Positions 46-210 of a stretch of DNA of 210 nt are shown here, one piece after another (positions within the stretch are counted from its first letter, which is position 1; each line of letters begins with the position of its first letter). The DNA comes from Escherichia coli (GTDB taxonomy: Bacteria > Pseudomonadota > Gammaproteobacteria > Enterobacterales > Enterobacteriaceae). Below the pieces are notes generated by a model, which was not told where the DNA came from, ran no database searches, and worked only from the letters and a program-made list of their open reading frames with translations. The position numbers were made by a program, and so were the translations under genes. The stretch lies in NCBI RefSeq assembly GCF_003334255.1, contig NZ_QOWU01000282.1; one strand, given 5' to 3'.

Positions 46-210
46 CAGCCTTCCGGTTGGCCCTTGTGGTCCCTGTGGTCCGGTTTCACCTGTCGGTCCC
101 TGTGGACCTGTCGGGCCCTGTCTTCCTGTTTCTCCCTGCAAACCTCGTGGCCCCGTTTTACCCGCAGGACCTGCCGGACCAACCGGCCCCGGAACACCCT
201 GTGCCCCCGC
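1..210 (-). CDS. collagen-like triple-helix repeat protein, internal fragment (5' and 3' ends both outside window)
   Basis: Reverse-complement frame with codons at + 208-210, 205-207, ... 1-3 is open for all 70 codons and translates to [70 protein letters not shown]. Gly is at every third position for 18 consecutive triplets, with Pro in 10 of 18 X positions. No in-frame ATG or stop is present, so both ends are truncated by the window. Product family is assigned from the Gly-X-Y signature only; no homology search was possible. Confidence 0.8.
46..210 (-). repeat. Gly-X-Y collagen-like triplet repeat region (18 complete triplets, uninterrupted; continues beyond + 210)
   Basis: Triplets in reading order are [54 protein letters not shown]. 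At the DNA level this appears as imperfect 9-bp/27-bp periodicity on the + strand, e.g. ggtccctgtgg at 68-78 and 95-105, ggcccttgtgg at 59-69 and gggccctgtc at 113-122. GC is about 67% in this segment, driven by GGN/CCN codons. Confidence 0.8.

Follow-up and report, generated by a model that had tools for sequence, protein, structure and literature searches.

The strand shown in the 210-nt window (the whole stretch of DNA analysed here) is antisense to a known gene for a collagen-like side tail fibre, carried by lambdoid prophages of E. coli. The window covers the end of the second collagen-like domain (Col2) and the start of the tip of an Stf-like fibre of the EPclC type. Most probably, the self-similarity of the Gly-X-Y coding sequence gives rise to slippage and recombination, through which the fibre stalk would drift in length by whole triplets.

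A side tail fibre gene of lambdoid prophages

Escherichia phages PhiR12_1, PhiR12_2, PhiR12_2_star, and PhiR12_4 contain the window at 100% identity, as do, among the matches listed, 13 E. coli chromosomes; some match to it occurs in 56 of 5,426 complete genomes. In the chromosomes with a 100% match, the gene is annotated as "prophage tail fiber N-terminal domain-containing protein" or "tail fiber protein". In PhiR12_1, the window corresponds to nt 1120-1329 of a 1563-nt CDS located on the opposite strand and flanked by J and by a DUF4376 tail-fibre-assembly gene, the latter split by an IS21-family element. Within E. coli prophages, the fibre gene likewise follows J (sometimes J plus lom) and precedes the DUF4376 gene. 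No complete ORF was found within the window, and translation of the minus strand in frame 0 reveals Gly-X-Y over all 55 aa encoded by positions 46..210, followed by 15 residues of the tip:

46..210, minus strand: 3' part of Col2, (Gly-X-Y)n, aa 374-428 of the run aa 312-428 (translation, minus-strand frame 0)
1..45, minus strand: first 15 codons of the C-terminal non-collagenous tip of ~92 aa ("PfC2") (translation)

The plus strand is open in a single frame, which is due to antisense Gly-X-Y coding being free of stop codons. Neither strand of the window gave an Rfam match at E <= 1, and the plasmid search returned a weak Bacillus collagen-like match and nothing else. An exact 54-nt search of contigs representing one genome per species yielded no match; the representative genomes are devoid of this prophage allele. 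No published paper on the PhiR5/PhiR12 phages or their accession numbers was found.

The fibre protein (520 aa) consists of PfN, a short helical linker, Col1, Pf2, Col2, and the C-terminal tip. PfN (Pfam PF08400) was detected at aa 1-134 (E=2.4e-42), and the Pf2 repeat (PF03406) at aa 260-301 (E=8.7e-16), between the two Gly-X-Y runs of Col1 (aa 136-253, 118 aa) and Col2 (aa 312-428, 117 aa). The Pfam Collagen domain was also detected, outside the part encoded by the window, and the protein matches PHROG 366, "tail fiber protein" (E=7e-122). Col1 is interrupted at aa 187-194 by GDPGGPPG, which follows the G-X-P-G-G-P-X-G pattern. The tip (aa 429-520) has no Pfam match, and thus no homology to PfC (PF06820), and no relative in the PDB; its single PHROG match, "tail protein", is weak. 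The beginning of the tip (window 1..45) is conserved across all alleles examined, and the domain is presumed to be the receptor-binding and trimerisation end of the fibre. From the 39 uninterrupted Gly-X-Y triplets of Col2, we infer that the protein would form a trimer with a collagen triple helix. Experimental demonstration of such a trimeric helix, with CD and EM, is confined to recombinant EPclA and EPclB (PMC3368898).

The gene is Stf-like and exhibits the EPclC-type architecture described by Ghosh et al. (2012, PLoS One 7:e37872). All five sequence-level features of EPclC that were tested are present, i.e., PfN, the Col-Pf2-Col order, the Col1 interruption, a C-terminus other than PfC, and a position within a lambdoid tail module. 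EPclC proteins (ECED1_2081 of ED1a and ORF-401 of P-EibA) have the same PfN, two Col domains, and Pf2, and they share with the window gene both the Col1 interruption and a C-terminus unrelated to PfC (PMC3368898). ECED1_2081 is of the same size as the PhiR12_1 fibre (520 aa, with Col domains of 118 and 117), which, as far as lengths alone can tell, suggests that the two are identical. There is no essential difference from EPclC, for which Ghosh et al. give protein lengths only.

The gene also resembles the Stf/Tfa system of phage lambda, with which it shares its position (after J/lom, before the assembly gene) as well as PfN and Pf2. To our knowledge, however, lambda Stf has no long collagen-like stalks. 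Moreover, the chaperone encoded in the prophages studied here is a DUF4376 protein, unlike lambda Tfa.

In PhiR12_1 (contig L001, approx. 3110-5690), as well as in PhiR12_2, PhiR12_2_star, and PhiR12_4 (L020-L022), the DUF4376 gene that directly follows the fibre gene is interrupted by the IS21-family element. The element encodes IstA (513 aa, E=1e-92) and IstB (248 aa, E=2e-80), and an 8-bp overlap (tfa nt 87-94) resembles a target-site duplication. It is conceivable that side fibres of PhiR12_1-type phages do not assemble, a situation that may be compared with the stf frameshift of laboratory lambda.

Repeats and length polymorphism in the collagen-coding sequence

The earlier note had drawn attention to an 11-mer that occurs twice on the plus strand, 27 bp apart, and to two close variants of it. 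Both exact copies are located where they had been described. Of the variants, GGCCCTTGTGG at 59-69 was borne out, with 9 of 11 bases matching, whereas GGGCCCTGTC at 113-122 is weak (8/10 matches, or three mismatches when it is read as a full 11-mer). The repeats and the variable segments of the window are as follows:

68..78, plus strand: first copy of the 11-mer GGTCCCTGTGG, antisense of P-Q-G-P (CCA CAG GGA CC), bridging two Gly-Pro-Gln units
95..105, plus strand: second exact copy of the 11-mer GGTCCCTGTGG, 27 bp away
64..81, minus strand: tandem 9-bp unit GGACCACAR (GGACCACAG / GGACCACAA), Gly-Pro-Gln x2; 1, 2 or 3 copies
85..120, minus strand: 18-bp unit, imperfect tandem pair CAGGGCCCGACAGGTCCA / CAGGGACCGACAGGTGAA (QGPTGP / QGPTGE); 2 copies or 1
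79..150, minus strand: 72-bp (24-aa) segment absent from E. coli 2013C-3033 and from protein cluster P0010
87..146, minus strand: tract swapped for diverged collagen-coding sequence that is 9 bp shorter (JNEC-KY202, PhiR5_2, and PhiR12_5)

Each offset between the short repeats (9, 27, and 18 bp) is divisible by 9. Only low-scoring repeats were obtained with Tandem Repeats Finder, with a period of 9 at 65-121 (score 38) and a period of 18 at 88-122 (score 56, 1.9 copies), and exact repeats reach a maximum of 11 nt within the window and 19 nt within the gene. Three matches to the pattern (with at most two mismatches) were reached in none of 200 dinucleotide shuffles (mean 0.21), a test that is partly circular because the pattern came from the sequence itself. 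Null models that preserve coding gave a different picture: the probability of a longest repeat of at least 11 nt was 0.49 when synonymous codons for the same protein were redrawn from the collagen codon usage of the gene, and 0.43 when G, X, and Y codons were shuffled among triplets. Thus, the 11-nt repeat arises as a side effect of encoding Pro-rich Gly-X-Y on the minus strand and is fully explained by it. Recent tandem duplication, considered as another source of the 11-mer, was ruled out by these codon-level nulls.

When positions 50-130 of the plus strand were folded as a single strand, a modest hairpin was obtained (-11.1 kcal/mol, z = -2.1; 6 of 200 shuffles were equal), and its potential to form results from the Gly-Pro codons GGT CC and GGA CC being mutual reverse complements. 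This hairpin could favour misalignment, the signal being weak.

The comparison of alleles covered 25 copies of the gene, taken from complete genomes and phages, and 20 of the protein clusters returned for it (P0001-P0020). The CDS of PfN-type alleles is 1209, 1437, 1491, 1500, 1509, 1518, 1554, 1563, or 1572 bp long; thus, a comparison of locus length across related strains, which had been proposed as a check, does disclose differences. The 9-bp unit is found twice in most alleles. It occurs once in STEC17-183, which retains CAG, and in allele L031, which retains CAA; it occurs three times as CAG-CAG-CAA in PhiR12_3, L027, L029, and L030, and as CAG-CAA-CAA in L028. Some of these one- and three-copy alleles come from short draft or metagenome contigs (356-1452 bp) that are possibly chimeric, and both states are also present in complete genomes. 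The C-terminal module is carried at 86 places by 28 complete E. coli genomes, seven of which hold a three-copy place. A one-copy place is exact in five of the 28, and nine more match the one-copy query over its entire length at 95-98% identity. The one-copy allele was found in isolates from Switzerland, Japan, China, and Ecuador.

Larger changes affect the same part of the gene. In SW071611, the loss of 18 bp (gene nt 1209-1226; window 104-121) leaves one copy of the 18-bp unit, a state that is also exhibited by protein clusters P0003, P0004, P0006, and P0012, and a 54-bp deletion recurs in five alleles. The 27 mismatches of the diverged tract are clustered at gene nt 1184-1243, and the replacement of window 87-146 appears to be a recombination mosaic. 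The idea that in-frame collagen-like repeats can expand and contract has therefore held for this locus, with the 9-bp unit present one to three times and the 18-bp unit once or twice. However, the pair of 11-mers stressed in the earlier note never serves as an indel endpoint: a 27-bp indel between the exact copies, including the product predicted from it, is absent from all alleles examined.

In the first copy of E. coli EC2 (L003, 3767-4975), the window is 100% identical, and 63 bp and 291 bp are missing upstream. An intragenic deletion fuses Col1 to Col2 with the loss of Pf2, and the resulting protein has 402 aa and an altered domain architecture. In E. coli SCU-104 (L012), a CAG-to-TAG nonsense mutation at window position 102 (gene nt 1228) makes the copy a pseudogene.

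It had also been suggested that the repeats would cause collapse of short-read assemblies. This part of the suggestion failed, since assembler k-mers are longer than 11-19 nt and exact repeats of 11 nt (window) or 19 nt (gene) are too short to collapse an assembly. Nonetheless, draft assemblies do break here. In four draft E. coli genomes (L026, L027, L029, and L030), the gene begins at base 1 of a contig of 356-2383 bp, inside the collagen region, and most database proteins returned for the C-terminal module are labelled "partial" (162 members in cluster P0001 alone). These contig breaks are more likely caused by near-identical paralogs located in different prophages (1-8 similar copies per genome), and because draft contigs end inside the fibre gene, copy-number calls from short contigs are unsafe. 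Collagen indels can also cause annotation pipelines to call intact tail fibre genes fragments. For example, a 1518-nt ORF of E. coli JNEC-KY204 (L013, 301-1818) is intact by translation and is represented in RefSeq by two "incomplete" pseudogene fragments; this split is probably an annotation artefact of collagen indels relative to the reference proteins.

Origin of the length changes

Ten indels were identified within the collagen-coding runs, and all of them are multiples of 9 bp (9, 9, 9, +9, 18, 27, 45, 54, 63, and 72 bp), which would have a probability of 1.7e-5 if lengths were random multiples of 3. Every variant within these runs keeps the ORF open. There are only two further in-frame length changes: 9 bp are missing at the edge between Col1 and Pf2, and the 291-bp deletion joins Col1 to Col2; none was found in the PfN/coiled-coil part or in the tip, despite 30 variable sites in non-collagen sequence. 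Since only multiples of 9 bp keep Gly at every third residue, only such changes persist. Selection for the Gly-X-Y register is nonetheless not the whole explanation, because the deletion junctions are rich in homology and the mutational process is thus homology guided. When each observed deletion was compared with all register-preserving deletions of the same length, with homology measured on one reference allele, junctions were enriched for flanking homology (individual fractions 0.006-0.40, combined P = 2.7e-5). The junction of the 18-bp deletion, with 20/24 matching positions, ranks in the top 0.6% of candidates. Exact microhomology at the junctions is short (2-8 bp).

These observations are most probably explained by a mechanism in which Pro-rich Gly-X-Y coding, by reusing a handful of codons every 9 bp, creates periodic self-similarity, which, in turn, would allow DNA strands to misalign in a 9-bp register. 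Slippage by one unit within the GGACCACAR and 18-bp tandems would add or remove whole Gly-X-Y triplets, and misalignment between dispersed imperfect repeats might remove 27-72 bp. Homologous recombination among the related tail fibre genes of one genome (1-8) would further shuffle blocks. The small changes presumably arise from replication slippage rather than recombination; sequence comparison does not separate slippage from recombination at very short homology.

It is unlikely that the repeats do not slip and that old length alleles have only been moved between co-resident prophage fibre genes by homologous recombination or gene conversion. Blocks do move: SNPs lie in shared blocks that appear in different combinations, window 87-146 has been replaced in JNEC-KY202, PhiR5_2, and PhiR12_5 by a tract that differs in length by 9 bp, and related places number up to 8 per genome (median 3), with SW070917 and DETEC-S792 holding one-, two-, and three-copy versions in different prophages. 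However, the two one-copy and two three-copy DNA forms require separate gains and losses of the unit, i.e., at least four independent events. All three copy states are present on the window's own GET/GEP haplotype, and two (2 and 3 copies) on the GLDGKT haplotype. Furthermore, within the window, a 9-bp deletion is the sole difference between STEC17-183 and its nearest haplotype, that of S1-CAM-02, and unequal recombination at 9-18 bp of homology would in any case be mechanistically close to slippage. That the length differences reflect mistakes made in sequencing or assembling a repetitive, GC-rich stretch is so improbable that this explanation can practically be dismissed. Some variant alleles do come from tiny draft contigs, and the complete genome G1/2 contains scattered 1-2 bp deletions of the kind that long-read errors produce, but the latter fall outside the collagen runs and disrupt the frame, whereas every collagen indel is a multiple of 9 and leaves the ORF open; moreover, identical alleles were found repeatedly in complete genomes that are independent of one another and come from different countries. 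In G1/2 (L010, 301-1856), five such deletions frameshift the PfN-coding part, and the adjoining J is frameshifted as well; because the gene is intact in G6/7 and G8, which are related isolates, these deletions look like long-read sequencing errors.

Slippage and recombination acting on self-similar DNA, the explanation favoured here, should be distinguished from programmed or adaptive hypervariation, in which a contingency-type locus would rapidly change fibre length beside the receptor-binding tip and thereby shift host range. The position of the variable units, directly before the tip domain, would suit such a role, and precedents can be cited: an 81-nt deletion of collagen-like repeats accompanied the host-range expansion of Guarani virophage (PMC7242381), and the repeat number of Legionella Lcl correlates with adhesion (PMC6460258). 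Nonetheless, we regard hypervariation as highly improbable at this locus. In phase switching, a change of unit number shifts the reading frame or promoter spacing; here, the unit is 9 bp long and in frame, the ORF stays open, and on/off switching is therefore not expected. The copy range is 1-3 only. One triplet would alter the calculated stalk by ~0.87 nm, compared with ~34 nm for Col2, and judging from this calculated length, a triplet change is probably close to neutral for the fibre. Match lengths are identical within S1-KEN-03/04, three SW0716 isolates, JE86-ST02/05, and UCPROB-001/002 (sets whose relatedness is judged by strain name and source only), and the four PhiR12 phages have identical fibre genes. 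Such constancy in seemingly related isolates suggests that the rate is not high and gives no sign of a fast switch. In addition, the fibre may be dispensable in PhiR12_1-type phages, since their assembly gene is broken by the IS element and yet GenBank lists E. coli K-12 or C as the host. Within this context, the length variation appears, from the alleles compared, to be evolutionary polymorphism.

Related systems, tip exchange and neighbouring genes

Repeat-number polymorphism between strains is a feature of BclA from Bacillus anthracis and of Scl1/Scl2 from Streptococcus, in which, as here, in-frame Gly-X-Y repeats vary in number. Legionella Lcl is a further example, for which both repeat-number polymorphism and phenotype have been described (PMC6460258). 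However, BclA, Scl, and Lcl contain long, near-identical multi-triplet arrays that serve as VNTR markers, whereas the fibre gene has two-unit tandems, exact repeats of at most 11 nt, and changes of one to a few triplets; with TRF scores of 38-56 and ~2 clean copies, it lacks a long VNTR-like array. The fibre is also a virion component rather than a cell-surface adhesin and is without an LPXTG motif or exosporium anchor. The NCBIfam Scl and Lcl models match the fibre below cutoff and in its collagen part only.

Further parallels are offered by viruses. In Streptococcus thermophilus phages and in ORF8 of Guarani/Sputnik virophage, collagen-like repeats are sites of spontaneous in-frame deletions, and such repeats have been put forward as recombination hotspots of phage fibre genes (PMC7242381 and the work of Desiere et al. 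cited there). In those cases, the deletions arose in culture and were linked to a phenotype, whereas the variation described here is standing variation between strains only. Within the EPclC-type family itself, Ghosh et al. (2012) noted that Col domains of one architecture vary in length, "typically multiples of three" residues (PMC3368898). Triplet-wise length variation is thus ordinary and already documented for this family; the present analysis adds the specific repeat units (9 bp and 18 bp), the 1-3 copies in which they occur, and an assessment of homology at the junctions.

Side tail fibres influence how lambdoid and Stx-type prophages adsorb and which hosts they can infect. Stalk drift by whole triplets, together with the exchange of tips between fibre types, may aid in reading tail fibre diversity, the practical consequences being small and current understanding remaining unchanged. 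With regard to tip exchange, the same Col2 end, tip, and DUF4376 gene are found behind three N-terminal fibre types (L004, 3767-5728; L019, 500-2434; L025, 2267-4255; matches H147-H155), namely PfN-type Stf, a "VSVVVSG..." tail fibre, and proteins labelled "phage tail-collar fiber domain". In JNEC-KY173, the "VSVVVSG..." fibre adjoins a gene annotated as "phage adaptor protein". It appears from this arrangement that the receptor-binding cassette has been exchanged between fibre shafts. A more speculative proposal, which we consider rather improbable, is that the collagen-like tract serves not only as a passive stalk but also as a functional junction, its 9-bp periodic homology acting as a crossover zone that moves the cassette (Col2 end, tip, and DUF4376 chaperone) among three unrelated shafts, and that triplet changes adjacent to the tip might retune reach or rotation for a new host surface, a role that has also been suggested for the Guarani deletion.

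Downstream of the assembly gene, a YadA-like trimeric autotransporter gene is present at 1280-2791 of L002, 1445-2692 of L003, and 708-1787 of L001, with matches to the YadA C-terminal anchor at E=1e-32 and E=1e-17. A YadA-like gene is similarly located downstream in P-Eib prophages. Given that an EPclC protein is encoded in prophage P-EibA (Ghosh et al., 2012), the downstream gene may perhaps be of the Eib type.
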